DNA from: Promethearchaeota archaeon
Lineage (GTDB): Archaea; Asgardarchaeota; Lokiarchaeia; Sigyniarchaeales; SOKP01
Direction of reading: 5' to 3'
Assembly: GCA_048938895.1 (NCBI GenBank)
Contig: JBHLLU010000038.1
Location: 1 to 37,899 of the forward strand
Length of the DNA: 37,899 nucleotides
The translations under genes and the position numbers were made by a program. Below are positions 5,972 through 35,086 of the stretch, in pieces (position 1 is the stretch's first letter; the number at the start of each line of letters is the position of its first letter). The notes under the pieces are model-generated. The model saw only the letters and a list, made by a program, of their open reading frames with translations, did not search any database and had not been told where the DNA came from.

Positions 5972-7165
5972 TCACTTCTGATATTTATTCCAGTTTTCTT
6001 CGAGATTAGGATCCTGAAGTGTATTCATTAAATACTTAGCAAATTCTTCCCCTGTAGCTCCCGTATCTCTTCCGGTCATCTTTAATTTCTTTTCATAGGT
6101 TGCGCATATATCAAGAGCCATTTCAAGTTGTTTTGCTTTATCTACAAATCCTATATGGTTTAAAAGTAATGCAGCAGCCTTTATGATGCTAGAAGGGTCA
6201 GCATATTGAGCTCTGCCTTCTTCAACCATTCGAGGAGCTGAACCATGAATAGCTTCAAACATTGCGTATTCTTTACCTATATTTGCGCTTCCAGCAGTAC
6301 CAACTCCACCCTGTAGCTGAGCAGCTTCATCAGTAATGATGTCCCCATAAAGATTAGGGGCAACAAATACTTTAAAATCCTTTTGACGTGCAGGATCAAC
6401 GAGTTTAGCGGTTGCAATGTCAATATACCAGTCATCCCATTTAACTTGAGGATATTCTTTTGCAATTTCTTCTGCCATGGAGAGAAATCTGCCATCTGTA
6501 GCTTTTACGACATTTGCTTTCGTTACCACCGATACTCGATTAATTTTGTTTTTGGCTGCATAATCAAATGCTAAACGTATAATCCTGTCTGAACCCTGTT
6601 TTGTTATTACTTTGAAATCTATTGATAAATCATCAGAAACATTAATTCCTTTCGATCCTAACACATAAGCTCCTTCCGTATTTTCTCTGAAGAACATCCA
6701 ATCAATACCTAGCTCTGGTACTTTTACTGGGCGAACATTAGCAAATAAATCTAATTCACGCCTCATTGTAACATTAGCACTTTCGATATTTGGCCATTTA
6801 TCTCCTTTACGTGGCGTAGTTGTTGGGCCTTTTAATAAAACATGACACTTCTTAATTTCTTCTAAAACATCATCAGGAATAGCCTTCATTACTTTAGCTC
6901 TGTTTTCAATTGTCAAACCTTCAATAACTCTAAGTTCTACAGCACTACTATTCGACTCATCCTTAAGTAAAAATTCCAAAATTGTTTGAGCATGCTTTGT
7001 TATATATGGTCCGATTCCATCCCCACCAACGAGTCCTATAATAATAGGTTTGAGTTTAGAATAATCAGTCCAATCCGCGGCTTTTTTCATCTGTTCAACT
7101 CGTTCCAATTGTTCTCTAACAAGAGACTCAAAATGTTTTGTTGCTTTTTCTACTAAATCAGTCAT
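5972..7165 (-). CDS. icd: Isocitrate/isopropylmalate dehydrogenase family, probably isocitrate dehydrogenase
   Basis: GDGIGP, KGPTTTP, SANVTMRRELDLFANVRP (IDH-like S/N/R substrate residues), RENTEG, NLYGDIITD, EAIHGSAP. SD GAGGT. Confidence 0.75.
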   Translation of the reverse strand: MTDLVEKATKHFESLVREQLERVEQMKKAADWTDYSKLKPIIIGLVGGDGIGPYITKHAQTILEFLLKDESNSSAVELRVIEGLTIENRAKVMKAIPDDVLEEIKKCHVLLKGPTTTPRKGDKWPNIESANVTMRRELDLFANVRPVKVPELGIDWMFFRENTEGAYVLGSKGINVSDDLSIDFKVITKQGSDRIIRLAFDYAAKNKINRVSVVTKANVVKATDGRFLSMAEEIAKEYPQVKWDDWYIDIATAKLVDPARQKDFKVFVAPNLYGDIITDEAAQLQGGVGTAGSANIGKEYAMFEAIHGSAPRMVEEGRAQYADPSSIIKAAALLLNHIGFVDKAKQLEMALDICATYEKKLKMTGRDTGATGEEFAKYLMNTLQDPNLEENWNKYQK

Positions 7166-9749: not shown

Positions 9750-11585
9750 TTATTCTGTAAATAAAATTTCATCATAAGGTTGTCGAAATAATCCTGCTCT
9801 TTGTCGCTTTTGGTCAAAGATATGCCCCATCATTCCGATTGATCTTCCCAAAACAAATAGGCCATTTAAAGCTTCACTATAAATTACATCCTCTATTTCC
9901 TCTTTAGTGTAGTCAAGATTTTCCAACAAATCTAAGAAGGTAATCCCAATACAACCATCAACATTCAGTATAAGATTGTTTCTCTTTGAGGTTGTTGCTT
10001 TTTCGACTTCTAATGCATAATCTAAGTGTGGATGTTTGGGAAAATTTTTTAATATGAATTCTTTTAATAGCACCACTCTCATGTCAGGATTCTGAACGGA
10101 CTTAACTCTGTGTCCGATTCCGGGAATGTTGATTTGAACAACATTTTTCATATAATTCATAAACTCTACAGGTGTCATTCCTTTTTGTACAGCTTCTCTA
10201 AAATATTTTGCTGCATCTGATACGGCTCCCCCAAATCGAGGTCCTATAGTAAGTATCCCACTAGCCAATGCCGACATTAAATCTTTTCCTGCGCGAGCCG
10301 TAATGATAGCATTATGAGCACCCGAAACAGCAGGACCATGATCTGCCGTTAATTTAATAACCATTTCGATATATTGCTGTGCAAACTCAGGTAATTCACG
10401 TTTAAACCAGAGTAACCCTATAACATAGCCAAGAGTTTTGTTCTCTCTTATTATTTTATCAAGAGGTACTTGATTATAAGTAACTATCTCCCCTCGATCA
10501 TCACTTATAGATACTATTACGTCTGTAGGACGTCTTACAACTCCTAATCTAGTTGCATCATTAAAGTTTAATGGTACTTTGGGAGGTTCAAAATCTTCAG
10601 CTGGTTTTATTTTGCCTTCCTGTACTAATTTATCAAAGGTTTTTCTAATTAATTTATCTAAATCTTCATATGAATCTGGTACAATAGCTCCTACTTTCCT
10701 TAAAGCTTCATTTTTTGCTTCGGCGGTTTCCATATCACTTCCTGCCATAGCACCGGCATGCCCGAATTGTAACCCTGCGGGTAATATCTTGGCACCTGTT
10801 CCCGCTACCCAAATAACTAAGGGTTTTGTTATTTTGCTTGATTTAATTGCATCAACAACAGCATACTCATCTTTTCCACCAATTTCTCCTAAAGCTACTA
10901 ACATTTTAATATTTGGATTAGCTTCATACCGTAATAGGTGATCGATTAATTGGGATCCTGGATATTTATCTCCCCCTATAGCAATTCCTTCATAGATCCC
11001 ATCAGTTGTTTGAGATATCATAAAATTCATTTCATTGGATAATCCACCCGATTTAGATACAAATCCTACTGATCCAGGTCGGTAAAGTTTTGATAAAACA
11101 ATATTTTCAATAGTTCCTGCGGAGTTTCCAATTTTAAATGCACCTGCTTTAATACCACCAACGGTGGCGGGACCGATAATAATTTTTTTTCTTTCATCTG
11201 CAATTTTGGTTAAATGTCTTGTTTGCCTTTCTGGCATACCCTCTGCTATGATCGCTACAGTTCTAATCGTATTAGTTTCTAGTGCTTCCTTAGTTGTAGG
11301 ATATGCTGATCGAAATGAGGCAAAATTCACCATGACATCAGCATCAGGATGGTTTTTAACAGCTAAATTGAGTGTTTTATATACTGGTACTACGATCTCA
11401 TTAGAACCCCAAAATACCTTATGGTATGCTACAGCTGCATCTTGAGTAGGTCGTATTACTGCAGCCACAGATGGTTTTTCCCTTTTGCAAATGTAGTCAA
11501 AATCAAGCATTCTTTGAATAGCATTTGCTTGAAATCCATATATTATTGCTTTTGTATTTTCATCAAATAAATCATAATCTTCCAT
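9750..11585 (-). CDS. aclA: ATP-citrate lyase alpha subunit (CoA-ligase domain plus citryl-CoA lyase domain)
   Basis: QRMLDFDY, GPATVGG, SKSGG, GGDKYPGS, phospho-His QFGHAGA, ADHGPAVSGAHN, GIGHRVKS, NLILNVDG. SD GGAGG. Confidence 0.95.
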   Translation of the reverse strand: MEDYDLFDENTKAIIYGFQANAIQRMLDFDYICKREKPSVAAVIRPTQDAAVAYHKVFWGSNEIVVPVYKTLNLAVKNHPDADVMVNFASFRSAYPTTKEALETNTIRTVAIIAEGMPERQTRHLTKIADERKKIIIGPATVGGIKAGAFKIGNSAGTIENIVLSKLYRPGSVGFVSKSGGLSNEMNFMISQTTDGIYEGIAIGGDKYPGSQLIDHLLRYEANPNIKMLVALGEIGGKDEYAVVDAIKSSKITKPLVIWVAGTGAKILPAGLQFGHAGAMAGSDMETAEAKNEALRKVGAIVPDSYEDLDKLIRKTFDKLVQEGKIKPAEDFEPPKVPLNFNDATRLGVVRRPTDVIVSISDDRGEIVTYNQVPLDKIIRENKTLGYVIGLLWFKRELPEFAQQYIEMVIKLTADHGPAVSGAHNAIITARAGKDLMSALASGILTIGPRFGGAVSDAAKYFREAVQKGMTPVEFMNYMKNVVQINIPGIGHRVKSVQNPDMRVVLLKEFILKNFPKHPHLDYALEVEKATTSKRNNLILNVDGCIGITFLDLLENLDYTKEEIEDVIYSEALNGLFVLGRSIGMMGHIFDQKRQRAGLFRQPYDEILFTE

Positions 11586-11603
11586 CTTTTTATCTCCTCC
11601 TTC

Positions 11604-12896
11604 TCAGGTTTTACCCCCTTCTGCTTTTTTTATTAATTCAACCACTCTTGTCATATGAGTATAACGATCATAAATTTCAATTGGAACTCCTGTTTCTTCA
11701 CCAACTTGTTTCATAAGTTCTAACCCCTGTTTTTCATTTGGACCTCCTCTGCGAACAAATATTTTAACATTTGCTTTCTTTAATTTGTCAACAGAATTTT
11801 TAATCGCACTTACTATTCCTGTAAATGTAGCTTTAACGTCTGTAAAATTAGCTATTCCACCTCCAATTATAAGATATTTTGGTCTCCCCTGAGGATCAGG
11901 GGTTTCTGTTATTAAATCAATAATTGTCTGAGCGTAAATTTCAGTATGCTCACGTGAAGGATTGCCACTATATTCTCCGTAATTTCCTAATTCTTTTCCA
12001 AATCCAAGATCAACGATTGTATCTGTATAAATAACAGAAGCTCCACCGCCTGCAACCATAGTCCATACACGCCCTTCTCTATTAATTATTGTTAATTTTA
12101 GAGAAGCACCAGTTTTTTCGTCTATTTCTTGAATTCTTGCTTCTTCTTCTGACATTGTTTGACCAAACCCACTTGGAAATTCTATAGGATTTTCTGGATT
12201 TCCCCAAGTATCCCCATGTAAGAACATAGCTGTGTCATCCAGACGAGCTTTCACATCCAAGGGTACAATCTCCTTTTTTTCAGTTATTGCAAAAGGATTA
12301 ATTTCCAAAAACGCAAAATCTTGATCAACAAATACTTGAAAAAGAGCTTTAATAAAAGGGATTAGTACATCTTTATATTCTCCCAAGTCTGGTAATTTTC
12401 CTTCTAGATCAAAAGAATTTATATCAGTTCCTAAAGGGAGGGGTATATGAATTACTTTGTCCCAGTTTTCCTCTACAAATATACCCCCTTCAAAACTAAA
12501 GTGAATTATATCATTTTCTCTATCAGAAGTAATAGAGACATAGTATTCCTTTTCATGAGGGATAAAAGGTTCAATGAGTAAGCGTTTCAATGCTCCTTTT
12601 ATATTTCCAATTTCACAAACCCTATCTAAATTATCAACACAAAATTGTTTCATTTCATCACAATTAGCGTCAAGTAAAAGTAAATTAGCTTTTCCTCTTT
12701 TCCCAAATAATTGGTCTGGTTTAACTACTACCTTTTCTGTCTCAATCCAAGGATTATCTTTTATTATTTTATCTAAATCTGTGTTGCAATCGGCAATAGC
12801 TAATTTATTATGGTATTTAAAATCAGGATAGTATTTTGGAAGTTCTCTTGCTAAAAGCATTTTAGCATCATATTCGTAAATATTTTTTTGCGCCAA
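11604..12896 (-). CDS. aclB: ATP-citrate lyase beta subunit (ATP-grasp plus citrate-binding domain)
   Basis: KPDQLFGKRGK, GRVWTMVAGGGASVIY, NYGEYSGNP, GGGIANFTDV, RRGGPN. TTG start. Confidence 0.95.
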   Translation of the reverse strand: MAQKNIYEYDAKMLLARELPKYYPDFKYHNKLAIADCNTDLDKIIKDNPWIETEKVVVKPDQLFGKRGKANLLLLDANCDEMKQFCVDNLDRVCEIGNIKGALKRLLIEPFIPHEKEYYVSITSDRENDIIHFSFEGGIFVEENWDKVIHIPLPLGTDINSFDLEGKLPDLGEYKDVLIPFIKALFQVFVDQDFAFLEINPFAITEKKEIVPLDVKARLDDTAMFLHGDTWGNPENPIEFPSGFGQTMSEEEARIQEIDEKTGASLKLTIINREGRVWTMVAGGGASVIYTDTIVDLGFGKELGNYGEYSGNPSREHTEIYAQTIIDLITETPDPQGRPKYLIIGGGIANFTDVKATFTGIVSAIKNSVDKLKKANVKIFVRRGGPNEKQGLELMKQVGEETGVPIEIYDRYTHMTRVVELIKKAEGGKT

Positions 12897-14970: not shown

Positions 14971-15741
14971 ATGAAAGACAATCGAAAATTCCTGCGTTTT
15001 CTTGATAGGGAAGAATATGTTAAAATGGTCCCGGAATCTGATGAACAAAAGAATAAGCCTTTTCCTTTATTTCAAAAGGAATACGCAGAAGATACTAAAC
15101 TTATAGAATTAATCCCTCCCAAAAACTTCAAGATAGGAAATATGGCATTCAAAGATGCGGTGAATAAAAGAGTAAGTCACAGGAAATACACATCAGAATA
15201 CTTAACTCTTGAGGAATTATCATTTTTACTCTGGTGTACGCAAGGAGTGAAGGAAGTTATGAAGAGTGGTCGTGGTGTATTGAGAACTGTTCCATCTTCT
15301 GGGGCAAAAAGTCCATTTGAAACATATCTCATAGTTAATAGAGTGGAAGGGCTTGATCCTGGACTTTATCGCTATATTTCATTTACTCATCAGTTATTAT
15401 TCATAAAAAGTATCAAGAATGCTGAAAAAAAGATTGGAGAACTATCCTATGATCAAAAATTTGTTGGTAAGGGAGCAGTAATATTCTGTTGGGTGGCTAT
15501 ACCATACCGAAATGAATGGCGATATACTATACTGGCCCACAAGTTCATAGCAATTGATTTAGGTCTAGTTTGTGAGAATCTCTATTTAAGCTGTGCGGCA
15601 ATTAATATTGGAACCGTTGCTATAGGATATTACGAACAAAATAAGTTCGATTCATTGCTTGAACTGGATGGAAAGGACGAGTTTGTGGTACTGATTGCTC
15701 CTGTGGGAAAAATAAGAGAGCCTTCTCAATCTATATATTAA
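14971..15741 (+). CDS. SagB/ThcOx-family FMN dehydrogenase (nitroreductase fold)
   Basis: RVSHRKY, LEELSFLLW, RTVPSSGAKSPFE, ENLYL. Confidence 0.88.
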   Translation: MKDNRKFLRFLDREEYVKMVPESDEQKNKPFPLFQKEYAEDTKLIELIPPKNFKIGNMAFKDAVNKRVSHRKYTSEYLTLEELSFLLWCTQGVKEVMKSGRGVLRTVPSSGAKSPFETYLIVNRVEGLDPGLYRYISFTHQLLFIKSIKNAEKKIGELSYDQKFVGKGAVIFCWVAIPYRNEWRYTILAHKFIAIDLGLVCENLYLSCAAINIGTVAIGYYEQNKFDSLLELDGKDEFVVLIAPVGKIREPSQSIY

Positions 15742-17859: not shown

Positions 17860-18729
17860 TTAAAGTAATTCCTTGATTAATTTTGGTACTTCCCATGGAG
17901 TATCAGCAATGAAAGAACCTGCTTCTTTAAGAGCTTTAATTTTACCTTGTGCTGTACCAAATTCACCCGAAATTATTGCTCCCGCATGACCCATTCGTTT
18001 ACCCTTAGGAGCACTTTTACCTGCAATATACGAAATTATCGGTTTTGATACATATTCTTTAATATATTCTGCAGTTTTTTCTTCCTCATCACTCCCAATT
18101 TCACCTATTAATACAATTAATTTGGTATTTTGTTCATTGGAGTAATATTCTACTGCTTCGACCATAGTTGTTCCTCTAACAGGATCACCTCCAATCCCTA
18201 TATAAGCAGAAACTCCAATCTCCGCATTTCCAATGGCTTTTGTAATTTCATAAGAAAGAGTTCCACTTTTGGAGATGATCGCCACATTTCCATAATGACA
18301 CATATCTCCCGGCATTATTCCTAATTTAATTTTATCTGGAATCATCATTCCTGGACAATTTGGACCTACGATGTGAAGATTTTGTATTAAAGTTAACTCT
18401 CTTAATTTAATCATATCAAATACAGGAATATTTTCAGATATTATACAAGTCATTTTTATGCCTGAAAGTAAACTTTCCTCAACTGCACTATATGAAAAAC
18501 GAGCAGGAACAAAAACAATACTTATATCACAGTTAGTGTTTTCCACAGCTTCTTCTACAGAATCAAATACAGGAATTTTATACACTACTTCTCCTCCTTT
18601 TTTAGGAGTAACTCCTGCTACTATATTAGTCCCATAATCTAACATTAAACGAGTGTGAAATTTTCCTTGGTTTCCAGTGATTCCTTGAACAACAACTTTG
18701 GATTTTTCACTTATGTACAATTTACTCAC
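17860..18729 (-). CDS. sucD: Succinyl-CoA ligase (ADP-forming) alpha subunit
   Basis: VQGITG, GVTPKKGG, GPNCPG, SKSGTL, GIGGDP, phospho-His RMGHAGA. GTG start overlaps the sucC stop. Confidence 0.92.
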   Translation of the reverse strand: MSKLYISEKSKVVVQGITGNQGKFHTRLMLDYGTNIVAGVTPKKGGEVVYKIPVFDSVEEAVENTNCDISIVFVPARFSYSAVEESLLSGIKMTCIISENIPVFDMIKLRELTLIQNLHIVGPNCPGMMIPDKIKLGIMPGDMCHYGNVAIISKSGTLSYEITKAIGNAEIGVSAYIGIGGDPVRGTTMVEAVEYYSNEQNTKLIVLIGEIGSDEEEKTAEYIKEYVSKPIISYIAGKSAPKGKRMGHAGAIISGEFGTAQGKIKALKEAGSFIADTPWEVPKLIKELL

Positions 18730-19846
18730 CTACAACCTCCTTTACTTTTTCAACAGCTTTAATTACGTCCTGAAATGCATTCACTCCAGATTCTTCAAGG
18801 AGAGCAATTCCTTCTTTTTCTCTTGTCCCTGTAAGTCTTATTACTAATGGTGGTGTATCTTTCAGATCCTTTAATGCTTGAATTATTGCTTCAGCGACAA
18901 TATCGCATCGGGTTATACCACCGAATATATTTACAAGGACACATTTAGGTTTCATTCCAAAAAGTAGTTCTAATGCTTTATATACTCGTTCTTTACTGGC
19001 ACCACCTCCTACATCCAAGAAATTTGCAGGTTTTAAACCTAATTCAGAAAGTACATCTAATAACGCCATAGTTAAACCTGCTCCATTAGCTAGTATTCCA
19101 ATATCACCATCCAATTCTACAAAAGAAAAGCCTGATTCTTTTGCCAATCTTTCTAATGGGGTTAACTTTTTACCTTGTAGTTCTTTAACAATTGGTTGTC
19201 GAAAAGCTGAATCGTCATCCAGGATCATCTTTCCATCAACCGCTTTTAACCCTATTGGAGTGAGAACTAAAGGATTAATCTCGACTAACTGAGCTTCAAG
19301 TTTAGTTGTTATCTTCCATAAATTGTATAATAATGCCTTTGCAGAAGCAGAATTATCTCCAATAAAGCCCAAATTGTTGATAACTTTATCGATAATTTGT
19401 TCAGTTAAAGCAGTAGTATAAGAAAATTTCTCTTTGATTATAGCTTCTGGATTGGTATTTGCGACTTCTTCTATATCAATCCCTCCTTGTTTGCTTGCAA
19501 TTATATAGAACTGCCCTTCTGACGCATCTAGAGCAATTGAACAGTAGTATTCATGCTGGATCTCAACTAATTCTTCTACAAGAATAGCTTGGACTTTAAA
19601 TCCACTTACTTCCCTTTGGAAGAATTCATGACATAAAGTAATTGCTTCCTCTTTAGATTGAGCAATTTTAATAAGTCCAGCTTTTTTTCTGCTACCGATT
19701 GCTATTTGAGATTTAATAATTGCTGGAAACTCAAACTGATCTACTTTTTCTTCTATACATTCTCCCTTTTCTATTACAATATTTTTTACTAAAGGAATGT
19801 TAAATTGACTGAAAATTTTCTTACTTTCATATTCAAGTAATCTAAT
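18722..19846 (-). CDS. sucC: Succinyl-CoA ligase beta subunit, full length 374 aa, ATT start
   Basis: Frame is open for 158 codons upstream of the track start: (I)RLLEYESKKIF...KSQIAIGSRKKAG...VEE...EYY...GGIDIEE, continuing to EINPL, NGAGL, NFLDVGGG, NIFGGITRCD. Confidence 0.9.
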   Translation of the reverse strand: MRLLEYESKKIFSQFNIPLVKNIVIEKGECIEEKVDQFEFPAIIKSQIAIGSRKKAGLIKIAQSKEEAITLCHEFFQREVSGFKVQAILVEELVEIQHEYYCSIALDASEGQFYIIASKQGGIDIEEVANTNPEAIIKEKFSYTTALTEQIIDKVINNLGFIGDNSASAKALLYNLWKITTKLEAQLVEINPLVLTPIGLKAVDGKMILDDDSAFRQPIVKELQGKKLTPLERLAKESGFSFVELDGDIGILANGAGLTMALLDVLSELGLKPANFLDVGGGASKERVYKALELLFGMKPKCVLVNIFGGITRCDIVAEAIIQALKDLKDTPPLVIRLTGTREKEGIALLEESGVNAFQDVIKAVEKVKEVVGE

Positions 19847-19964
19847 TTGTTATCCCTCTTTCCTTGTCAGTATAAAATTAATGCTCTATATCTTTTTGTT
19901 GAATTTAATTATACTTTAATATATGATAATGTGAAATAAATAATTACAAGTAAAATTTATTGAA

Positions 19965-21392
19965 ATGAATAAAATGAACAAGTCAATTGAACCTCAAAAT
20001 ATAGATGAATCAAAAGGTTCTTCTATATCCAAATTAATTATGTTTTCAATGGGCTATTTTCTCAATATTTTCATAATGATGGCTTTTAATACTTATGTAT
20101 GGACTTTTTATGAAGTAGAGCTTGGATTAATAGGTTTTGTATCGTTATGGCCCTTATATATGGCAATCGCGAACATAATATTTACAGTATGGACAATGAT
20201 TACAAATCCTCTTATTGGCTATTTTACAGATAAACCTTTTAAGTGGACAAGGAAAAGAGGATTTCATACACCTTGGATTATTATCGGAGGTATCCCAACA
20301 ATAATCTTCTTTTTCCTCCTTTTCACGCCACCTAACGTCTCAGGACGAGAAAGTGCTATTCCTATTTTTGTATATTATCTATTTATCGTCTGTTTGTTTG
20401 ATATTTCTTATACTCTTCTTCAAACACATTCTTTTGGGGCTTTCGCTGCTCATTTCAGAGGGGAAAAGGAAAGAATAAGAGCAGGATTTGCTACTCAGTT
20501 TTTTACATTTCTAGCAAATTTCTTAGCAATTACAATCTGGTCACAGATTATTTTTGCAGGGAATATTGAATCATTTACATTCGCGGCATTAATAAGCATA
20601 ATACTTTTATTGATTTCTTTTATTATATTTATTCCAGGTTCTATAGAATCTGATGAGATTAAAGAGAGATTCATTTTAGGATATAAGAATGCAGAGAAAA
20701 TCTCATTTTTTAAAGCGATGAAAATTGCGATAAAACAGAAAAATTTTATGCTTGCTGTCCTTACATACGTCTTTTTCATGATAGCAATGGGGCTTGTAAG
20801 TATGAATTCATTTAATTTTGTTGATGATGTTTTAAAAGCAAAGCAGGAAATAAGAACTATTGAGTCATTCTTAATGTTTGTTGCATCTCTTTTGACGATG
20901 CCCTTATGGCTATTTTTAGCCAAAAAAATGGAAAATTCCACAATGTATTCGCTTGGTATGACTATCTTTGGGTTTATTGTGCTACTTAATTTATTCATTG
21001 TAAATGTATTCCAATTATATCTACTTGCTATCTTTAAAGGAGCTGCGATTGCGATGTTTTTAATTATGTTATCACCTATTTTTGCTGATTGTTATGATGA
21101 AATTGCTGTCAAAGCTCAGAAACACCAACAAGCTACCTTATTGGGAGTAAGAAATTTCTTTCTTAAAATATCTGTAACAATTCAAAGCTTAATTATTGCA
21201 TTTATTCACATCATTACAGTATATGAACCAATTAATCCAAGCACTAATGCGATTTTAGGTCTTCGCTTAATCCAAGGACTATTTCCATTTCTTTTTTGCT
21301 TTATTGGTGCTTTAATATTTTATAAATGGTTTGATTTGAAGGGAAGCAAAAAGAAAGAAATTATGAAAAAATTAAAAGAAATGGGCTTATAG
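19965..21392 (+). CDS. MFS transporter, glycoside-pentoside-hexuronide (MelB-like) type
   Basis: About 12 TM segments, NPLIGYFTD..., PWIIIGG, FADCYDE. Confidence 0.82.
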   Translation: MNKMNKSIEPQNIDESKGSSISKLIMFSMGYFLNIFIMMAFNTYVWTFYEVELGLIGFVSLWPLYMAIANIIFTVWTMITNPLIGYFTDKPFKWTRKRGFHTPWIIIGGIPTIIFFFLLFTPPNVSGRESAIPIFVYYLFIVCLFDISYTLLQTHSFGAFAAHFRGEKERIRAGFATQFFTFLANFLAITIWSQIIFAGNIESFTFAALISIILLLISFIIFIPGSIESDEIKERFILGYKNAEKISFFKAMKIAIKQKNFMLAVLTYVFFMIAMGLVSMNSFNFVDDVLKAKQEIRTIESFLMFVASLLTMPLWLFLAKKMENSTMYSLGMTIFGFIVLLNLFIVNVFQLYLLAIFKGAAIAMFLIMLSPIFADCYDEIAVKAQKHQQATLLGVRNFFLKISVTIQSLIIAFIHIITVYEPINPSTNAILGLRLIQGLFPFLFCFIGALIFYKWFDLKGSKKKEIMKKLKEMGL

Positions 21393-21457: not shown

Positions 21458-22279
21458 TTAATTTCCTAATTCGTTGATTTTTAGAGGTGGGCGAGGTGTT
21501 GTTCTGAGATATTTCACAGCAGGATAACCGAGTGTAAAAGCCCCAAGTACATAACCTTTTATTCCTAAAATATTCATAATTTCTCTATTCATAGGAATTG
21601 CTATTTGAAGGCCACCTATCCAACATGTTCCAAGACCAAGAGTTTCAGCAGCGAGCATACCATAAGTTAATGCAATACCTGCATCATTACCGCGCAATCC
21701 TATCATTGTACCAATTTTTTCAACAGTTTCATAGTATAAAACAATTAAATGAGGTGCATTGAAAAAAACATTTCTTCCTCTAGATTTGAGAGATTTGAGT
21801 GCTTCATCTTCTGATTCAAAACCCCTATATCTATACATTGTTTTCACAATTGCATCACTCAATTCTTCGATTTTTTCAGGATCAGATATAATTAGATAAC
21901 GCCATAATCGGAGATTACCACCACTTGGAGCATATCTCATAGCCTTAAAGACCTTTTCTATTAATTCTTGTGGAACATTTTTAGATTTATAACGTCTAAT
22001 TGATCGTTTTGCGCGAATAAGTCTATAAAAATTGTCGTTGGTAATAATAGCTTCTGGAGAATCTATGCCTGGAAAGGATTCAACATCTTCTAAGTCCTCT
22101 GTGAGAATAGCATTTTCAGGACATATGGCTATACAATGACCACATACGTTACAAGCTGGAAGGGTTTCATTGAACACTACTTCTTTATTTTCATTGACTG
22201 AATAATAACCACTACCACACTCTTGGATACATTGCTTACAATTCGAACACTTTTCTTTATCAATACCAATAATTGACAT
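21458..22279 (-). CDS. Nitroreductase with N-terminal 2x[4Fe-4S] domain (paralog 1)
   Basis: CSNCKQCIQEC and CNVCGHCIAICP; KRSIRRY, APSGGN, LGLGTCWIG. Confidence 0.9.
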   Translation of the reverse strand: MSIIGIDKEKCSNCKQCIQECGSGYYSVNENKEVVFNETLPACNVCGHCIAICPENAILTEDLEDVESFPGIDSPEAIITNDNFYRLIRAKRSIRRYKSKNVPQELIEKVFKAMRYAPSGGNLRLWRYLIISDPEKIEELSDAIVKTMYRYRGFESEDEALKSLKSRGRNVFFNAPHLIVLYYETVEKIGTMIGLRGNDAGIALTYGMLAAETLGLGTCWIGGLQIAIPMNREIMNILGIKGYVLGAFTLGYPAVKYLRTTPRPPLKINELGN

Positions 22280-22470: not shown

Positions 22471-23289
22471 TTATTCAAGTCCTTTTATTTTTAATGGTGG
22501 TCTTGGGGCTGTTCTATGATATTTCACAGCAGGATAACCTAATGTGAAGGCTCCGAGCACCATTCCCTTTATTCCAATAATGTTTAAAATCTCTTTATTC
22601 ATTGGAACTGCCCCCTGAATCATTCCAATCCAACAAGTTCCAAGACCAAGACTTTCTGCTGCTAGCATTCCATAAGTTAAAGCAATTCCGGCATCATTTG
22701 CGCGTAATCCAATCATAATACTATTTTTTTCAACAACCCTATAATATAATACAATTACATGTGGGGCGTTATAAAATATACTACGTCCAATAGATTTAAA
22801 ATATTTAAGAGCTTGTTCTGCGGATTTAAAACCCATATACTGGTATTGAGTCTTTACAATTTCATTACTTAATAACTCAATTTGCTCAGGATCTGAGAGA
22901 ATTATATATCGCCATGCCCGAGCATTAGAAGCGCTTGGTGCATATCGCATTGCTTCAAAAACTTTTTGAATTATTTCTTTTGGGACTTTTTTGTTTTTAT
23001 AACGTCTTATTGATCGCTTAGCTCGAAGAAGTTTATATATCTTATCATATTCTACAATGTCTCCCGGAGAATCTATACCTGGAAAGGTTTCAACGTCATC
23101 TAAATCTTTTGTGAGAATAGCATCTTCAGGACAAATGGCTATACAGTGACCACAAATATTACAAGCTGTAAGGGTATCATTGAAGACTACTTCTTTACTT
23201 TCATTGATTAAAAAATATCCACGACCACACTCTTGGATGCACTGCCTACAATTTGAACACTTTTCTTTATCAATTCCAATAACTGACAT
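22471..23289 (-). CDS. Nitroreductase with N-terminal 2x[4Fe-4S] domain (paralog 2)
   Basis: CSNCRQCIQEC and CNICGHCIAICP; KRSIRRY, APSASN. Colinear with paralog 1. Confidence 0.9.
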   Translation of the reverse strand: MSVIGIDKEKCSNCRQCIQECGRGYFLINESKEVVFNDTLTACNICGHCIAICPEDAILTKDLDDVETFPGIDSPGDIVEYDKIYKLLRAKRSIRRYKNKKVPKEIIQKVFEAMRYAPSASNARAWRYIILSDPEQIELLSNEIVKTQYQYMGFKSAEQALKYFKSIGRSIFYNAPHVIVLYYRVVEKNSIMIGLRANDAGIALTYGMLAAESLGLGTCWIGMIQGAVPMNKEILNIIGIKGMVLGAFTLGYPAVKYHRTAPRPPLKIKGLE

Positions 23290-25061: not shown

Positions 25062-26810
25062 ATGATTGTATATGGTGCATCAAAAATTAACGATATCTCA
25101 ATAGTGCTTTGTGGAGCTGCGGGTCAAGGTATTCAAACTGTTGAAGCATTATTAACAAAAACATTAAAAAGAACAGGATATCATGTATTTGCAACTCGAG
25201 AATACATGTCACGTGTTCGAGGAGGAGTCAATTCTACTGAAATTAGAGTTTCATCTAAACCTGTACGAGCATATGTCGATCGAATTGACATTTTAATCCC
25301 ACTTAACGAAGCCGCACTCCCACATTTAAAAGAAAGAATATCCCCTGATACTTTAGTCATTGGTGAAAAACGCTACTTAGAAACTATTTCAGATATTAAA
25401 TTTGAAATATTAAGTATTCCCTTTACAGAACTTTCAAATGAAGTTGGGGGTGCTATATATGCAAACATAATTGCATTAGGGGTAATATTATGCATATTAA
25501 ACGCTGAAAGGACAATACTTTTAGATTTACTTTCAGAGAATTTCAAATCAAAAGGCCAAGAAATTATTAACAATAATATTAAGGCTGTCGATAAAGGTTA
25601 TGAGGTAGTCGAACAAAAATTAGCTTCAAGAATTGTAAATAAGAAACGATTTGAAATACCGAGAAATACAGATATAATAGATAATTATATATTAGATGGA
25701 ACTCAAGCGATAGCGTTGGGTGCTATTGCAGGAGGTTGTAATTTTGCTTGTTTTTATCCAATGGCACCTTCTACTGGTATTGGCACATTTTTAGCTCAAC
25801 ATGCTCTTGAATTCGATATGATTGTTGATCAAACAGAAGACGAGATCAGTGCTATTAATAAGACTCTAGGTGCTTCATATGCAGGAGCACGTTCGTTTGT
25901 CTCCACTTCTGGTGGTGGGTTCTCTCTCATGACAGAGGGAATAAGCCTTGCAGGTATGACAGAGTTACCAATAGTAATGGTTGTGGGACAAAGACCCGGA
26001 CCCGCAACTGGAATGCCCACCAGAACGTCTCAAGAAGATATTGAACTCGTGCTATATGCTGGTGCTGGGTGGTTTCCAAGAATTATTTTCTCACCAGGTA
26101 GCCTAGAGGATGCTTTTAAATTGACCCAAAAAGCATTTAACCTTACTCAAAAATATCATGTTCCTGTATTTATTCTAACAGATCAATACCTCGTTGATTC
26201 ATATTATAATATTAGTTCATTAGATTTAGATTCCTTAGAAATTATTAAAAACATTGTTGAAACTCACAAATATTATGAGAGATACCGATTTACAGATAAT
26301 GGTATTTCTCCACGAGGAATCCCCGGTTACGGTGAAGGATTGGTTGATGCAGACAGTCATACTCATGATGAATATGGTGCTATCACAGAGGATCCAATAA
26401 TAAGAAATAAAACAGTTGAAAAACGATTTAAAAAACTCGAGGTAATTAAAAAAGAAACCATACCTCCAGAATTTTATGGAGTTAAGAAACATAAATATCT
26501 TATAGTAAGTTGGGGCAGTAATTTCTATTTGATTAAAGAAGCTTTAGAAAGATTGGACCGGGATGATATTGGTTTCTTATTTTTTAAACAGATTTATCCC
26601 ATTCATGAATCTGCTCTTGATTATCTTACGAATGCGGAAATAAGGATATCAATTGAGCAAAATCCGACTGCACAATTTGCGAAACTATTAGAAAATGAAA
26701 CTCACATAAACATGAACCATAGGATTTTAAAATACAGTGGTTATATTTTCTCTGTCGAGGAAATTTTGGAACGATTGAAAAATATAATTGGTGGTGAGAA
26801 AGATAACTAA
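25062..26810 (+). CDS. korA: 2-oxoacid:ferredoxin oxidoreductase alpha subunit (gamma-alpha fusion)
   Basis: GAAGQGI, EYMSRVRGG, FYPMAPST, QTEDEISA, TSGGGF, QRPGPATG.PT. Confidence 0.9.
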   Translation: MIVYGASKINDISIVLCGAAGQGIQTVEALLTKTLKRTGYHVFATREYMSRVRGGVNSTEIRVSSKPVRAYVDRIDILIPLNEAALPHLKERISPDTLVIGEKRYLETISDIKFEILSIPFTELSNEVGGAIYANIIALGVILCILNAERTILLDLLSENFKSKGQEIINNNIKAVDKGYEVVEQKLASRIVNKKRFEIPRNTDIIDNYILDGTQAIALGAIAGGCNFACFYPMAPSTGIGTFLAQHALEFDMIVDQTEDEISAINKTLGASYAGARSFVSTSGGGFSLMTEGISLAGMTELPIVMVVGQRPGPATGMPTRTSQEDIELVLYAGAGWFPRIIFSPGSLEDAFKLTQKAFNLTQKYHVPVFILTDQYLVDSYYNISSLDLDSLEIIKNIVETHKYYERYRFTDNGISPRGIPGYGEGLVDADSHTHDEYGAITEDPIIRNKTVEKRFKKLEVIKKETIPPEFYGVKKHKYLIVSWGSNFYLIKEALERLDRDDIGFLFFKQIYPIHESALDYLTNAEIRISIEQNPTAQFAKLLENETHINMNHRILKYSGYIFSVEEILERLKNIIGGEKDN

Positions 26811-27663
26811 TAATTCGTTTGATTTGGAAGGAATTGAAATGCATTGGTGTCCTGGATGTGGAAACTTTAGTGCGATGAAAGTAATGAAAGAAACATTGAT
26901 TGAATTAAATATAAAACCAAAAGATTTCGTATTAGTTTCTGGAATCGGACAAGCGGGAAAATTTCCTCATTTTATGAAATCACAAAGCTATAATGGACTT
27001 CACGGGAGATATTTGTCAGCAGCATTGGGTATAAAAGCAGCAAATCCAAATCTTCATGTAATTGCTGTGAGTGGTGATGGATGTACATATAGTGAAGGAG
27101 GAAATCACTTTCTCCACACCATCCGGTATAATCCAGATATTGTCAATATTGTACATAATAATATGGTCTATGGGTTAACGAAGGGTCAAGCATCTCCTAC
27201 TAGTCAGTTAGGCTTTAAAACCAAAGTTCAGGTATTTGGGGTTATAAATGAACCATTTAATGCCGTAGCGGTGGCTATAGCATTGAATGCTTCTTTTGTT
27301 GCCAGAGCATTCGTAGGTGATATAGAAAAGTCCAAAGAGATTTTAAAAAGCGCTATAAACCATAAAGGATATGCTCTTATAGATCTACTATGTCCATGTG
27401 TTAGTTTTAATCGCGTTAATACCTTTCAATGGTACAAGGCAAATAGTTATTATATAGATAGTTCTCATAATCCACATGATCAAAAAGCCGCAATGGATTT
27501 GGCATTAGATACTAGTAAGTTTGCTTTAGGAATTCTATATCTAAATCTCAATAGGAGAATCTATAGTGAAAACGTTCGTATTTATAATAATGATAAAAGA
27601 CCATTATATCAGCGTGATTTAAACAAAAAAAAAATAGAGGACTTGTTAAACACTTTTCGGTAA
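26788..27663 (+). CDS. korB: 2-oxoacid:ferredoxin oxidoreductase beta subunit (TPP-binding); start uncertain between 26788 and 26803
   Basis: WCPGCGN, SGIGQ, LHGR, GDG...EGGNH, NNMVYGLTKGQASPT, PCVSFN. Confidence 0.9.
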   Translation: MVVRKITNNSFDLEGIEMHWCPGCGNFSAMKVMKETLIELNIKPKDFVLVSGIGQAGKFPHFMKSQSYNGLHGRYLSAALGIKAANPNLHVIAVSGDGCTYSEGGNHFLHTIRYNPDIVNIVHNNMVYGLTKGQASPTSQLGFKTKVQVFGVINEPFNAVAVAIALNASFVARAFVGDIEKSKEILKSAINHKGYALIDLLCPCVSFNRVNTFQWYKANSYYIDSSHNPHDQKAAMDLALDTSKFALGILYLNLNRRIYSENVRIYNNDKRPLYQRDLNKKKIEDLLNTFR

Positions 27664-27693: not shown

Positions 27694-29406
27694 ATGAAGA
27701 TAGAAGAATTTGATGTTGTGGTGGTTGGTGCTGGTCTCAGCGGATTAAGAGCGGGATTAGAATTATCATCAAGGTGGAATGTAGCAGTAATTAGTAAAGT
27801 CTATCCTGTTAGATCTCATTCTGGAGCAGCTCAAGGGGGTATCAATGCTGCATTAGGAAATTTAGCAGAGGCAAAAGAGGATACTCCAAAAAAGCATGCA
27901 TTTGACACAATCAAAGGTTCAGATTATCTAGCAGATCAAGACGTTGTAATGTTCATGTGTGAAGAAGCTCCTAAAATTGTGGTTGAATTTGAAAGTATGG
28001 GTGCTCCTTTTTCTCGATTAGAATCTGGATTAATTGCTCAACGTCCTTTTGGTGGTGCTGCGTTTCCACGTACTTGTTATGCGGGGGATAGAACAGGTCA
28101 TGCTTTACTTCATACGCTTAATGAACAATCAGTTCGTAAGGGTGTAACTTTCTTTGATGAATATTTTTTAATTGATCTTTTTTCAGTACAAGGAAAAATT
28201 GCAGGATTGATAGCTCTTGATATTGCCAAAGGAGAGCTTGTTTCATTTAGAGCACCTTATATCATTTTAGCAGCAGGAGGGTTTGGAAGGATATTCAAGC
28301 GTTCTACAAATGCAGTTATTAATACAGGGGATGGCGTAGGAGCTGCCTTTAGAGCGGGTGTACCTATGCAAGATGTTGAGTTTGTCCAATTTCATCCAAC
28401 AACCTTGTATGGGACTAATATTCTCATAACCGAAGGTGCTAGAGGTGAAGGTGGATATCTTTTAAATAAAAATAAAGAACGATTTATGATAAAAACTGCT
28501 CCAAAAGCCATGGAGCTTGCCCCACGAGATATGGTTGCACGAGCAATTGAAACTGAAGTTATTGAGGGTAGAGGTTTTGATAATGCTTATGTCAATCTAG
28601 ATCTTACCCATCTAGGAGCTGATAAAATAAATGAACGATTACCTGGGATCAAAGAGATTAGTATTTACTTTGCTGGGGTTGATCCCATTGAAGAACCAAT
28701 TCCTGTACAACCTGGACAACACTACTCAATGGGAGGAATTGGAACAAAATTTGATGGTGATTATGGTGAAACAGATTTAGATGGATTGTATACGATTGGT
28801 GAATGCTCTTGTTTATCAGTTCATGGTGCAAACCGATTAGGCGGAAATTCATTACTAGAAACAGCTGTATTTGGAAGATATATTGGAAGAAAATTGATAG
28901 AAAAAGGTTTGCCGTCTAAACCATCATTGAGTAAGATCCAAACTGCTGAAGAAGGTACACTCGAGAAGATCGAACAACTCCTTAAAAGTTGGGATACTAA
29001 TACGGGCAAGAAACCGGTAGAACTTAGGAATGAAATGGGTGAAACCCTAAATAAGAATGTTGGAGTCTATAGGAATGAAAAAGATCTTAAAAAAGCGAAC
29101 CAGACTCTTATCAAATTGCAGAGTGAATTTTTAAATGTTCATGTTCCAACTGAAGATAGAAAGTTTAATTTTGGATTAGTTCGCACACTAGAACTTCGGA
29201 GCATGATAGACATTGCAGAAGTCACTGCTTTCGCCTCGTTATGGAGAAAAGAGAGCAGGGGAGCTCATTTTCGCACAGATTATTCTAGCCGAAATGACAA
29301 TGATTATTTAGTACATTCAATGGTTTATAGAAGACAAAACAGGCTAGAAATTAAAACTAAACCCGTTAAATTAGGAATATTTGAAGTAAAAGAGAGGAAA
29401 TACTAA
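27694..29406 (+). CDS. sdhA: Succinate dehydrogenase/fumarate reductase flavoprotein subunit
   Basis: GAGLSG, RSHSGAAQGG (covalent FAD His), QFHPT, ELAPRD, HYSMGG, HGANRLGGNSL, ESRGAH. Confidence 0.93.
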   Translation: MKIEEFDVVVVGAGLSGLRAGLELSSRWNVAVISKVYPVRSHSGAAQGGINAALGNLAEAKEDTPKKHAFDTIKGSDYLADQDVVMFMCEEAPKIVVEFESMGAPFSRLESGLIAQRPFGGAAFPRTCYAGDRTGHALLHTLNEQSVRKGVTFFDEYFLIDLFSVQGKIAGLIALDIAKGELVSFRAPYIILAAGGFGRIFKRSTNAVINTGDGVGAAFRAGVPMQDVEFVQFHPTTLYGTNILITEGARGEGGYLLNKNKERFMIKTAPKAMELAPRDMVARAIETEVIEGRGFDNAYVNLDLTHLGADKINERLPGIKEISIYFAGVDPIEEPIPVQPGQHYSMGGIGTKFDGDYGETDLDGLYTIGECSCLSVHGANRLGGNSLLETAVFGRYIGRKLIEKGLPSKPSLSKIQTAEEGTLEKIEQLLKSWDTNTGKKPVELRNEMGETLNKNVGVYRNEKDLKKANQTLIKLQSEFLNVHVPTEDRKFNFGLVRTLELRSMIDIAEVTAFASLWRKESRGAHFRTDYSSRNDNDYLVHSMVYRRQNRLEIKTKPVKLGIFEVKERKY

Positions 29407-30173
29407 TGGTTAATATGCAGAAATTTTTGGTTTATAGAAATAATGGAGATGGAAATATTCGTTATGATAAATTTGAGGTTCCTTTAACAAAAGGTATGAG
29501 CATATTAGAAGCACTTTTTTATATACAGGATTATATCGATTCCTCTTTAGCATTTCGATACGCTTGTAGAGGTGCTATTTGTGGCTCTTGTGGGATGACA
29601 ATTGATAAAGTACCATTACTCGCATGTAGAACTCAGGTTTTAACTGTAAAGTCTTCAACGAAACCTGTTAATCTGCCTGAATTCAAATTAGGGGAATATC
29701 AAAATTGGAACTCCACAACCGAAATTTTGATTGAACCCTTACCTAATATGGCTGTATTGAAAGATCTAGTAGTCGATATGGAACCATTCTGGAAATTTTA
29801 TAGAGAAATTGAACCATTTTTCATAAAAGAATGGAATGATAAAGCTCCTGAATCTTCACAGTTTCCTAATCAAATGAAAAAAATTGAGCGCTTAGTTTAT
29901 TGTATTCTTTGTGGATTGTGTTGGGCCTGTCCAGTTAGTAAAATCAATCCAAATTATCTTGGACCAGCACAATTAGCTAAGGCTGATAGATTTGTAAGAG
30001 ATTCTAGAATTACAGACAAAAAACAGGAATCTATTCTTAGACGAGTATTAGAACATGACGCAGTTCCTGCATGTGAGAAGTATTTTGTATGTAATCGAGT
30101 TTGTCCTAAAGATGTTCTGCCCGGTATTGCAATAAAGGATATAAGAGAAAATTGGATGAGCAAAAAAGATTAA
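29406..30173 (+). CDS. sdhB: Succinate dehydrogenase/fumarate reductase Fe-S subunit
   Basis: CRGAICGSC..LAC (2Fe-2S), CILCGLCWACP, CEKYFVCNRVCP. TAATG overlap with sdhA. Confidence 0.9.
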   Translation: MVNMQKFLVYRNNGDGNIRYDKFEVPLTKGMSILEALFYIQDYIDSSLAFRYACRGAICGSCGMTIDKVPLLACRTQVLTVKSSTKPVNLPEFKLGEYQNWNSTTEILIEPLPNMAVLKDLVVDMEPFWKFYREIEPFFIKEWNDKAPESSQFPNQMKKIERLVYCILCGLCWACPVSKINPNYLGPAQLAKADRFVRDSRITDKKQESILRRVLEHDAVPACEKYFVCNRVCPKDVLPGIAIKDIRENWMSKKD

Positions 30174-31449: not shown

Positions 31450-32529
31450 TTGACAATTAAAACAAAAATTACTGAAATGTTTGGAATTAAATATCCAATC
31501 GTTAGTGCCCCCATGGGCCCTTTTCGTACAGTTGAATTAGCAATAGCAGTTTCACAAGCAGGTGGGCTTGGGACGATATCCCATACAACAGTTTCTATGG
31601 ATGGTTATGAAAAGAATACCTTAGAAGCCTTAAAGAAGAACCTTGATTATGCTATCGAGCAAACAGATAAACCATTTGGATTTAATATTATAACTTCGAG
31701 AAATATAGTCGATTGCGACAATTTAATAAGTGGAGCAGCAAAACACATTATGGATAATCCTAAACTGAGAGAGCAGTGTTTATATGCCCTTTCTAGTGCT
31801 GGTTCATCTAGAAGAATGCCTGAAAATAAAGAATTTCAAAAATTAAGGAAAGCAACGGAGATCAAGCACTTTCACGTTTCTCCAGCACTTTGGTTAGCTG
31901 ACAAGAGTGTTGCTTCGGGAGTTGATGGTCTGGTAATTACTGGATTCGAAGGTGGTGGCCATCAATCCTACGAACAAGTAGGAGGGATAGTTTTACAACA
32001 ACAGATCCAGCAAAAATATCCTGATATCCCAAGGATTGCGTGTGGTGGATATGCAACAGGAGCAGGCTTGGCAGCCGCATTATCTCTAGGTGCAGATGCA
32101 ATTGCCATGGGTTCAAGATTTATTGCATCTGAGGATAGCGAATTTCATGAAAATTACAAAGCTGTTATTCCACCTGCTAAAGCCCAAGATACAATTATAA
32201 GAACAGGTGCACTCAGTATCATTAGATATTGGAGAAATAAATTTGCCTTATCAAAAGGATTAGTAAAAACTAAAGAGGAAAAAATAGCAGAGGAAAAAGC
32301 CTTAGCTGATCACCGTGCCGTAATTTCACAAGAAGATCTTGCTGAAGAATTAAGAAAAGATGCAAAGGCAGCTTTTGCAGCTTACCAAGGGGATATGGAG
32401 AATGGTGGAGTTTTAATAGGGCAGAGTATTGGAATCATAAATAAAATCGAAAAAGTTTCAGACATTATAGAAAGAATAGTTAAAGAAGCTGAAGTAGCGT
32501 TAAAAACTGCTTCGGGTTATTTTCAATAA
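31450..32529 (+). CDS. Nitronate monooxygenase / FabK-like FMN oxidoreductase
   Basis: YPIVSAPM, AVSQAGGLG, GFEGGGH, GADAIAMGSRF, GQSIGII. TTG start after AGGTGA. Confidence 0.85.
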   Translation: MTIKTKITEMFGIKYPIVSAPMGPFRTVELAIAVSQAGGLGTISHTTVSMDGYEKNTLEALKKNLDYAIEQTDKPFGFNIITSRNIVDCDNLISGAAKHIMDNPKLREQCLYALSSAGSSRRMPENKEFQKLRKATEIKHFHVSPALWLADKSVASGVDGLVITGFEGGGHQSYEQVGGIVLQQQIQQKYPDIPRIACGGYATGAGLAAALSLGADAIAMGSRFIASEDSEFHENYKAVIPPAKAQDTIIRTGALSIIRYWRNKFALSKGLVKTKEEKIAEEKALADHRAVISQEDLAEELRKDAKAAFAAYQGDMENGGVLIGQSIGIINKIEKVSDIIERIVKEAEVALKTASGYFQ

Positions 32530-33688: not shown

Positions 33689-35086
33689 TTGATCAAAATT
33701 TCTAAATATCGAATTGAGAAAGATATTTTAGGAGAAATTAAGGTACCTGACAGTGCATATTGGGGTATTAATACCCAACGAGCAATTGAAAACTTTCAAA
33801 TTAGTGGCATTACTTTCCCTAAAATTTTTATTTCTTCTTTAGCTGTATTAAAAAAAGCTACTACTTTAGCAAATATAGATTTGAATTTGATTGACGAGAA
33901 TATAGGGACTGCAATTATTAAAGCTGCAGAGGAAATATTTAAAGAAGGAAAATATTCTGATCAATTTCCAATTGATTTTTATCAAACTGGGAGTGGTACT
34001 CAGACGAATATGAATATGAATGAAGTGCTAGCAAATAGAGCTAATGAAATCTTAGGATTTCCTAAGGGGGAAAAAACTCCTGTACATCCAAATGATCATG
34101 TAAATAGATGTCAATCTTCTAACGATGTTATTCCAACTACTATGCATATTTCAGCACTCCTTCTCATAAATCAAAAATTATTTCCAGCTTTAAAAAGACT
34201 AGTTGAAGGATTAACATTAAAAATTGAGGAATTTAAAGAAGTTATCAAAGTAGGAAGAACTCATCTTCAAGATGCTGTTCCAATTCCCTTATCTTTAGAA
34301 TTTGAAGTATATAAAAAACAAATTATCACATGTGAAAACCGAATAAATAATGCTTGTAAAGAGCTTTATCAAATTCCTATTGGTGGAACCGCATTAGGAA
34401 CTGGATTAAATGCAAGTGACGGTTTTGCCCAATTAACTATTGATTACTTATCAAATATGACAGAATTACCTTTTGAGCATAACCCGGTTATGGCGGAAGG
34501 AATATCTTCGCATAATGTAATTTCTAACCTAAGTAGTTCTTTAAAAAATTTAGCATTATCTTTATTGAAAATGGCAAATGATATTAGATGGATGGGAAGT
34601 GGTCCAAGAGCAGGACTTATGGAATTAATTCTACCTAAAAATGAACCTGGATCCTCTATAATGCCCGGGAAAGTTAATCCTACTCAATCTGAATCATTAA
34701 TACAAGTATGCCTAAGAGTTATAGGAAATGACGCAATTATTACCTACTCAGAAGCTTATGGAAGTATTCTTGATTTAAATGTTTGTAAACCCTTGATGAT
34801 TTTCAGTCTTTTAGATTCTATAGAAATTATCAGTAATTCAATTAATTCTTTTATTGACCATTGCCTTTTAGACATAAAAGCTAACAGACAGCAAATCAAT
34901 TCTCAATTGGACAATTTGCTTATGTTAGTTACAAATCTCACTCCCATATTAGGGTATGATAAATGCTCAGCAATTGCTATTAAAGCCTATGATGAAAATA
35001 AGACAATTAAAGATGTTATTGAAGAAATGGGAATTGAGATAGGGGAAGACCTTGATGAAATTTTAGATCCAAAAAAGATGGTTTGA
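33689..35086 (+). CDS. fumC: Class II fumarate hydratase
   Basis: QTGSGTQTNMN, HPNDHVN..QSSND, GRTHLQDA, GSSIMPGKVNPTQ. Confidence 0.9.
   Translation: MIKISKYRIEKDILGEIKVPDSAYWGINTQRAIENFQISGITFPKIFISSLAVLKKATTLANIDLNLIDENIGTAIIKAAEEIFKEGKYSDQFPIDFYQTGSGTQTNMNMNEVLANRANEILGFPKGEKTPVHPNDHVNRCQSSNDVIPTTMHISALLLINQKLFPALKRLVEGLTLKIEEFKEVIKVGRTHLQDAVPIPLSLEFEVYKKQIITCENRINNACKELYQIPIGGTALGTGLNASDGFAQLTIDYLSNMTELPFEHNPVMAEGISSHNVISNLSSSLKNLALSLLKMANDIRWMGSGPRAGLMELILPKNEPGSSIMPGKVNPTQSESLIQVCLRVIGNDAIITYSEAYGSILDLNVCKPLMIFSLLDSIEIISNSINSFIDHCLLDIKANRQQINSQLDNLLMLVTNLTPILGYDKCSAIAIKAYDENKTIKDVIEEMGIEIGEDLDEILDPKKMV

Follow-up and report, generated by a model that had tools for sequence, protein, structure and literature searches.

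The sucC gene of a Promethearchaeota (Loki-type Asgard) archaeon, which encodes the beta subunit of succinate-CoA ligase, is very likely translated from an ATT codon led by a Shine-Dalgarno (SD) motif. The gene lies on the minus strand of the window, which is here the whole stretch of 37,899 nucleotides that was analysed (NCBI GenBank assembly GCA_048938895.1, contig JBHLLU010000038.1, positions 1 to 37,899; G+C content about 32%). An original prediction, made from the letters of the window, had proposed this non-canonical start; it is borne out by ATT, ATA or ATC (together, ATH) at the same position in 38 of 44 Asgard loci, by the SD-like motif 8 nt upstream and by the lack of a canonical alternative. 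The feature is confirmed but is not peculiar to this genome, being a trait of the sucC clade that unites Hod-type and Loki-type Asgard loci.

The sucC start in the window

19844..19846, minus strand: ATT, codon 1 of sucC and its proposed translation start, from direct reading and Met1 alignment
19853..19859, minus strand: Shine-Dalgarno-like AGAGGGA, with the 5-mer AGAGG at 19859-19855, 8 nt before the ATT
19850..19852, minus strand: in-frame TAA, two codons 5' of the ATT
18722..19846, minus strand: sucC coding sequence, 374 codons plus TAA (18724-18722), an open frame without stop
19370..19372, minus strand: TTG, codon 159, the first in-frame ATG, GTG or TTG of sucC
19847..19964, no strand: intergenic region of 118 nt, common to sucC and a divergent MFS_2 gene

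Read directly from position 19860, the minus strand is aaGAGGGA TAA CAA ATT AGA TTA CTT GAA TAT GAA; the codon string, the TAA two codons upstream, the SD-like GAGGGA and the 158 codons without ATG, GTG or TTG are all as first described. The in-frame TAA at 19852-19850 rules out an upstream in-frame start, and no canonical start occurs between it and codon 159; a mechanical list of open reading frames (ORFs) gives sucC as 18722..19372 only, with 216 aa, because the first canonical start is the TTG at codon 159. A 216-aa product started at TTG 19372 would lack the greater part of the ATP-grasp domain. Within its unit sucC comes first, and no ORF upstream of it is able to run or frameshift into it. 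The out-of-frame ATG inside GAA-TAT-GAA was considered as a start and rejected; it opens a frame of 13 codons and is lost where the tyrosine is spelled TAC.

Translated from the ATT, the 374-aa product is full-length SucC. It aligns to NCBIfam NF001913 (ADP-forming succinate-CoA ligase beta subunit) from query residues 2-372 to profile positions 2-385 of 388, with a score of 365.1 bits and a curated cut-off of 370; the malate-CoA ligase model gives the same product 254 bits against a cut-off of 604. Pfam places ATP-grasp_2 at residues 3-194 (E = 7e-48) and Ligase_CoA at residues 253-369 (E = 1e-21). The window ATT falls at position 1 of the SucC profile, where Met1 is expected.

Codon 1 across orthologs

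A single scan of a collection of species-representative genomes gave 66 loci (44 Asgard, 22 bacterial), and the codon aligned to query residue 1 was read in each of them.

Codon 1 in the 44 Asgard loci: ATT 22, ATA 15, ATC 1, ATG 4 (L026, L027, L035, L041), CTG 1 (L028), GTA 1 (L023)
Codon 1 in the 22 bacterial loci: ATG 19, GTG 2, TTG 1

A comparison of start codons among orthologs had been suggested along with the prediction, and it favours the ATT, with 38 ATH codons in the 44 Asgard loci and ATG absent from 40 of them; the locus with GTA (L023) carries an in-frame ATC and ATT just 5' of that codon. Recurrence of the same class of non-canonical codon, at the same column, in 40 of the 44 independent assemblies rules out chance or error as its source. 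Codon 2 is invariably arginine, spelled AGA, AGG, CGA, CGT, CGC or CGG, and since the residue is kept despite the varied spelling, the frame is read from here. An in-frame stop stands 0-1 codons upstream of codon 1 in 14 of the 44 Asgard loci; the window and 21 of the 44 share a codon 1 other than ATG together with a lack of any ATG, GTG or TTG from the upstream stop until codon 11 or later, the gap to the first canonical codon extending to codon 207 in L001. L001 is also the closest locus, with 83% identity and an identical ATT and leader; the closest proteins and loci to the window come from Promethearchaeota (Loki-type Asgard) metagenome-assembled genomes.

The sucC frames of L005 and L011 end early, at 254 and 216 codons, and no sucD ORF was found in these two loci by the rule used; the truncation may be due to a frameshift, an assembly error or a pseudogene.

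Shine-Dalgarno signal and leader

The best match to GGAGG was sought in the 30 nt before codon 1 of 45 sequences, comprising the window and the 44 Asgard loci. The spacing of the best GGAGG-like 5-mer to codon 1 is exactly 8 nt in 37 of the 45 and 7-10 nt in 43, and the 5-mer is a perfect GGAGG in 20; the preference for 8 nt is not an artefact of the script, because the tie-break favoured 7 nt. The spacing at the window sucC is that of the Pyrococcus abyssi aEF1A model mRNA, which is laid out as GGAGG, 8 nt and AUG (PMC6237735, available text). A strong and conserved SD is notable because SD sequences are rare in Lokiarchaea, SD-led genes being a minority in the portions available of PMC12993045 and PMC7531240; a crude scan of the 332 kb that make up the window and the Asgard loci found only 27 SD-plus-canonical-start sites outside sucC. 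The conserved strong SD at sucC is in keeping with one that compensates for a weak start codon. Mini-ORFs that overlap the SD (e.g. ATGAGG in L004, L039 and L040) were considered as well, and are not conserved.

Further upstream, a motif of about 29 nt, TTATAGATTATTAGAAnAAnTTTTATTAA, is found 30-110 nt before sucC in most Loki-type loci (alignment A1, columns ~65-95). Its 15-nt core is exact in 13 sucC loci (e.g. L010:2900-2914) and occurs once elsewhere, at L022:327-341 (minus strand), about 55 nt upstream of another gene; the window has no copy of the motif even when 3 mismatches are allowed. A role as promoter or operator element is likely, and no RNA structure is predicted for the motif: RNAalifold gave no pairs over 31 upstream regions, whose alignment is poor between this motif and the SD. 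The region from -60 to +60 in the window does not fold significantly (z = -1.19; 27 of 200 shuffles fold as well), and the window contains no Rfam family at gathering score and no tRNA.

Selection and evolutionary history

The ratio of nonsynonymous to synonymous substitution rates (dN/dS) was estimated by the Nei-Gojobori method between the window and L001 together with eight other relatives.

Window against L001, codons 2-158: dN/dS 0.108, dS 0.92
Window against L001, codons 159-374: dN/dS 0.070, dS 1.42

With the eight other relatives dN/dS is 0.045-0.112 in both halves where dS could be estimated, with saturation in 5 of 16 comparisons. The codons that only a non-canonical start yields are as constrained as the rest of the gene, which is therefore not a pseudogene. 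It had been claimed that the intact ATP-grasp domain can be made only through non-standard initiation; this stands, as no canonical codon precedes codon 159 and the N-terminal 157 codons are under purifying selection.

A quick maximum-likelihood tree was built from 43 Asgard SucC rows with codon 1 left out and six of the 22 bacterial loci as outgroup; L005 and L011 were dropped because of their shortened ORFs. It is a gene tree, not a species tree, and its root rests on distant bacteria. ATG is found on the two deepest Asgard branches (L041 and L035); the clade of 41 rows above them (SH-aLRT, the Shimodaira-Hasegawa-like approximate likelihood ratio test, 93, a "quick" support that deserves caution) contains 37 ATH, 2 ATG, 1 CTG and 1 GTA, and at least five changes of codon 1 state are required among the Asgard rows. 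On the topology of this gene tree, a single change from ATG to ATH probably took place before the split of Hod-type and Loki-type sucC, followed by drift between T and A and by rare returns of ATG. The third base of codon 1 in the clade and the window is T 23, A 16, C 1 and G 3, counts that are descriptive only, the rows not being independent; fourfold sites of the same genes have A 0.38, C 0.10, G 0.12 and T 0.39. Codon 1 of sucC thus shows no preference whatever for ATG, an unusual trait in a start codon.

Gene specificity

The window and the 44 Asgard loci contain 212 stop-to-stop ORFs of at least 200 codons, 17 of which have at least 30 codons before the first canonical start; 15 of these 17 are sucC. 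The two others are an antisense ORF in L012 and a membrane protein (L036:4166-5263) that can start at ATG codon 46, and neither requires a non-canonical start; in the window, all other long ORFs carry a canonical start within 16 codons of the upstream stop. A scan for SD-anchored ATH codons, of a kind proposed along with the prediction as a check, gave no excess of ATH outside sucC (ATG 20, TTG 4, GTG 3, ATT 4, ATA 3, CTG 1, other 62); its motifs were relaxed and its background was high, as the 62 other codons reflect. Both screens miss genes that by chance have a canonical codon near the start. Within this sample, ATH at the conserved Met1 is a trait of sucC.

At L020:2181 (plus strand), an SD-like GAAGG stands 8 nt in front of an ATT in an ORF whose N-terminus, IEKIERTEDIKSFRFERPEDL, resembles that of an oxidoreductase. 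Canonical starts are absent from this frame over the next 125 codons and the 12 before, and 16 nt upstream there is an ATG in another frame. At the mere 3x coverage of the L020 contig, an indel and a second ATT start are equally likely.

Starts other than ATG seem frequent in this genome. Window genes that appear to need TTG or GTG to keep their Pfam domains are located at 11604-12896 (minus), 26788-27663 (plus), 31450-32529 (plus), 33689-35086 (plus) and 35096-36163 (plus); the ATP-grasp subunit of ATP-citrate lyase starts at TTG, as does fumarase, whose next ATG is at codon 112.

The partner gene of sucC follows it on the same strand.

17860..18729, minus strand: sucD (alpha subunit), directly 3' of sucC; NF004230, 373.9 bits, cut-off 336

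Its start is 1-7 nt from the sucC stop, and in most loci it is an ATG just after that stop; in the window a GTG at 18729 overlaps the end of sucC and a TTG at 18720 stands where most orthologs carry ATG. In L024 the usual start position of sucD holds an ATT with the next canonical codon 8 codons on, a possible second ATH start; these two exceptions are cases of weak starts arising outside sucC.

Annotation and literature status

The protein collection contains the window's own 374-aa product, beginning with M (P0001). The expectation that standard callers would truncate the gene to 216 aa therefore holds for the ORF list but not for the database, which has the full product; NCBI also calls the ATT in three other loci, the deposited P0021, P0036 and P0069 being the ORFs of L007, L015 and L038 with M at the ATT. 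NCBI translation table 11 permits ATT, ATC and ATA as starts, as with the sucC of these three loci; such calls are an annotation outcome, not a description of a conserved ATH start. Of the 120 nearest proteins in the database, 28 are shortened by 9-92 residues, to 282-365 aa. A literature search, with subscription-only papers and supplements outside it, found no report of a conserved ATH start of Asgard sucC and no study that fixes its N-terminus by proteomics or ribosome profiling; the ATT start is already present in annotation, and a published description was not found in the literature searched.

Proposed mechanism and alternatives

The AUU of the sucC mRNA is proposed to act as the translation start in this archaeon. 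The SD-like AGAGGGA would pair with the 3' end of 16S rRNA, and the distance of 8 nt would put the AUU in the P site, where the initiator Met-tRNA would pair with the A and the U and tolerate the mismatch at the third base. Initiation at AUU is expected to be less efficient than at AUG, which would give sucC a low or factor-sensitive rate of translation; sucD may be governed by the same rate through its start abutting the sucC stop, and the conserved strong SD would make the weak codon usable. In the available text of PMC6237735, aIF1 discriminates against non-canonical starts in Sulfolobus; a near-cognate sucC start would thus be sensitive to the same kind of factor. Lower expression than from AUG and dependence on fidelity factors may be inferred for sucC from this aIF1 activity (PMC6237735) and from the precedents in the portion available of PMC2830850.

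A number of observations weigh against this account. Canonical codons lie nearby in some relatives, with TTG at codon 3 in 13 of the 44 Asgard loci and GTG three codons upstream in 4 Hod-type loci, where the true start may be; the calls for the 120 nearest database proteins begin at codon 3 in 44 cases and at an upstream canonical codon, with Ile retained at codon 1, in 16. The SD was scored against GGAGG, not the host's own 16S rRNA 3' end, and in the window and L001 the ATT is preceded at 25-30 nt by a TATA-like TTTATA, which would agree with a leaderless mRNA and be at odds with use of the SD. The NF001913 score falls about 5 bits below the equivalog cut-off; the third-base spectrum of codon 1 resembles that of fourfold sites and fits neutrality as well as a selected weak start; and the initiating tRNA, the efficiency and the regulation at the ATT are matters of inference only.

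If the ATT start is real, the chances are about even that the weak codon is selected for control or merely tolerated. Tolerance would make it a frozen accident, in which ATG changed to ATH in an AT-rich ancestor, was borne thanks to the strong SD and then drifted neutrally at the third base with no tuning; this has appreciable plausibility, somewhat short of an even chance. The third-base counts near fourfold-site composition are consistent with it, as are the return of ATG in only 2 of the 41 clade members, not above the expectation from mutation bias, and the weaker starts in sucD (TTG in the window, ATT in L024). Against drift alone, ATG is strongly favoured in ordinary genes, yet it was not regained here while synonymous sites became saturated (dS from 0.9 up to saturation across the comparisons); an SD almost invariant in itself and in its spacing speaks for selection on the initiation region, and among the 212 long ORFs no other gene has drifted likewise. 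The counterpart proposal, that the AUH start is a selected control point as old as the Hod-type and Loki-type sucC clade, with the output of sucCD gated through the stringency of aIF1, aIF1A and aIF2, is tentative and rather doubtful.

It is improbable that the true start of the family is the TTG at codon 3, or the upstream GTG in Hod-type loci, with ATH being just an isoleucine or untranslated codon and the window copy poorly expressed or decaying. The nearby TTG and GTG codons and the database calls from codon 3 favour such a start, and ATT, ATA and ATC are synonymous codons for isoleucine; but such a codon is missing from the window (TTA at codon 3) and from 21 of the 44 loci, yet dN/dS in the N-terminal part is about 0.1. 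The SD spacing, 8 nt to the ATH, would grow to 14 nt for a start at codon 3, the stops 0-1 codons upstream in 14 loci mean that the ATH is no internal isoleucine there, and the ATH column is exactly where the four Asgard loci with ATG and every one of the 22 bacterial loci begin; the Hod-type GTG is itself within an SD-like GAAGGTG.

Another mechanism of initiation at ATH, either on a leaderless mRNA beginning at or near the ATT or by an elongator tRNA-Ile that gives an N-terminal isoleucine, is highly improbable. The TTTATA, the minority status of SD-led genes in Lokiarchaea noted above and the occurrence of all three isoleucine codons at codon 1 speak for it; the fixed GGAGG-like motif at 8 nt is unexplained if it is untranscribed, TATA-like strings are common at 32% G+C and the position of this one is not conserved across loci, and CTG and ATG also occur at codon 1, which fits near-cognates of the initiator tRNA rather than tRNA-Ile. 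Leaderless archaeal mRNAs are reported to need AUG.

An ATG misread as ATT in sequencing or assembly, or a pseudogene of recent origin, named at the outset as what would refute the start and made conceivable by the single base that separates ATT from ATG, a metagenome-type assembly and the cut sucC ORFs of L005 and L011, is barely credible and appears excluded by ortholog conservation, given the 40 independent assemblies without ATG at codon 1, the same ATT and leader in L001, the dN/dS of 0.108 over codons 2-158 and the match to the family profile at full length.

Comparison with known systems

The closest parallel to an SD-led ATT start of sucC is bacterial infC, encoding initiation factor IF3, which starts with ATT in many bacteria and ATA in Deinococcus-Thermus; like sucC it has a conserved gene-specific AUU or AUA start, interchange of ATT and ATA and an SD upstream (PMC2830850, available text). 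In infC, unlike sucC, the weak codon is an autoregulatory sensor, IF3 itself rejecting AUU; sucC encodes a metabolic enzyme with no known role in start selection, in a host that has aIF1, aIF1A and aIF2 without IF3, and no feedback loop is evident.

Non-canonical starts also limit single genes in Escherichia coli pcnB (AUU), Deinococcus dnaA (ATC), rpsL (CTG) and Enterococcus faecalis ebpA (ATT), which like sucC were recognised since a canonical start loses the conserved N-terminus (PMC2830850, PMC4447247). As described in the available text of these sources, those cases all come from bacteria and do not extend beyond a genus or family, several with proteomic or genetic proof, whereas the sucC start is archaeal, spans a class-level clade with amino-acid identity down to about 64%, and is known from sequence alone.

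Eukaryotic non-AUG initiation gated by eIF1 and eIF5 resembles the Asgard case in that homologues of eIF1, eIF1A and eIF2 are used; it differs in that sucC involves no scanning, the ribosome being positioned by the SD. Eukaryotic near-cognate starts are mostly CUG, GUG or ACG, rather than AUU or AUA.

Genomic neighbourhood

The window is a tricarboxylic acid (TCA) or reverse-TCA cycle neighbourhood in which sucCD (17860-19846) is included; the surrounding genes are the following, the first five from Pfam matches.

5972-7165: isocitrate dehydrogenase
9750-12896: two ATP-citrate-lyase-type subunits
25062-27663: 2-oxoacid:ferredoxin oxidoreductase alpha/beta pair
27694-30173: succinate dehydrogenase/fumarate reductase flavoprotein and Fe-S subunits
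33689-35086: class II fumarase
19965-21392, plus strand: MFS_2/GPH-type transporter, divergent from sucCD

A transporter of the same type is also divergent from sucCD in L022 (1364-2788, minus strand) and in L018, which suggests that the synteny of transporter and succinyl-CoA synthetase is conserved. Two tandem paralogs on the minus strand (21458-22279 and 22471-23289) have an N-terminal 4Fe-4S dicluster fused to a nitroreductase-family domain, and a third nitroreductase or SagB-like gene is found at 14971-15741.

Significance

Callers restricted to ATG, GTG and TTG mis-annotate a gene of central metabolism in a much-studied lineage, and mis-called starts can make SucC appear partial or absent in metabolic reconstructions of Asgard archaea. 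The sucC start shows that a start codon can stay away from ATG for very long; as a natural, deeply conserved near-cognate start behind a rare strong SD, it is a substrate for questions about aIF1 and aIF2 stringency and SD pairing, for which toeprinting or cryogenic electron microscopy systems exist in P. abyssi and Sulfolobus solfataricus. If the AUH start is a selected control point, archaea would have in it their own parallel to infC/IF3 control or to eukaryotic eIF1-dependent non-AUG control; a rare strong SD would then hold the ribosome on a near-cognate codon, gating an operon in a TCA or reverse-TCA neighbourhood.

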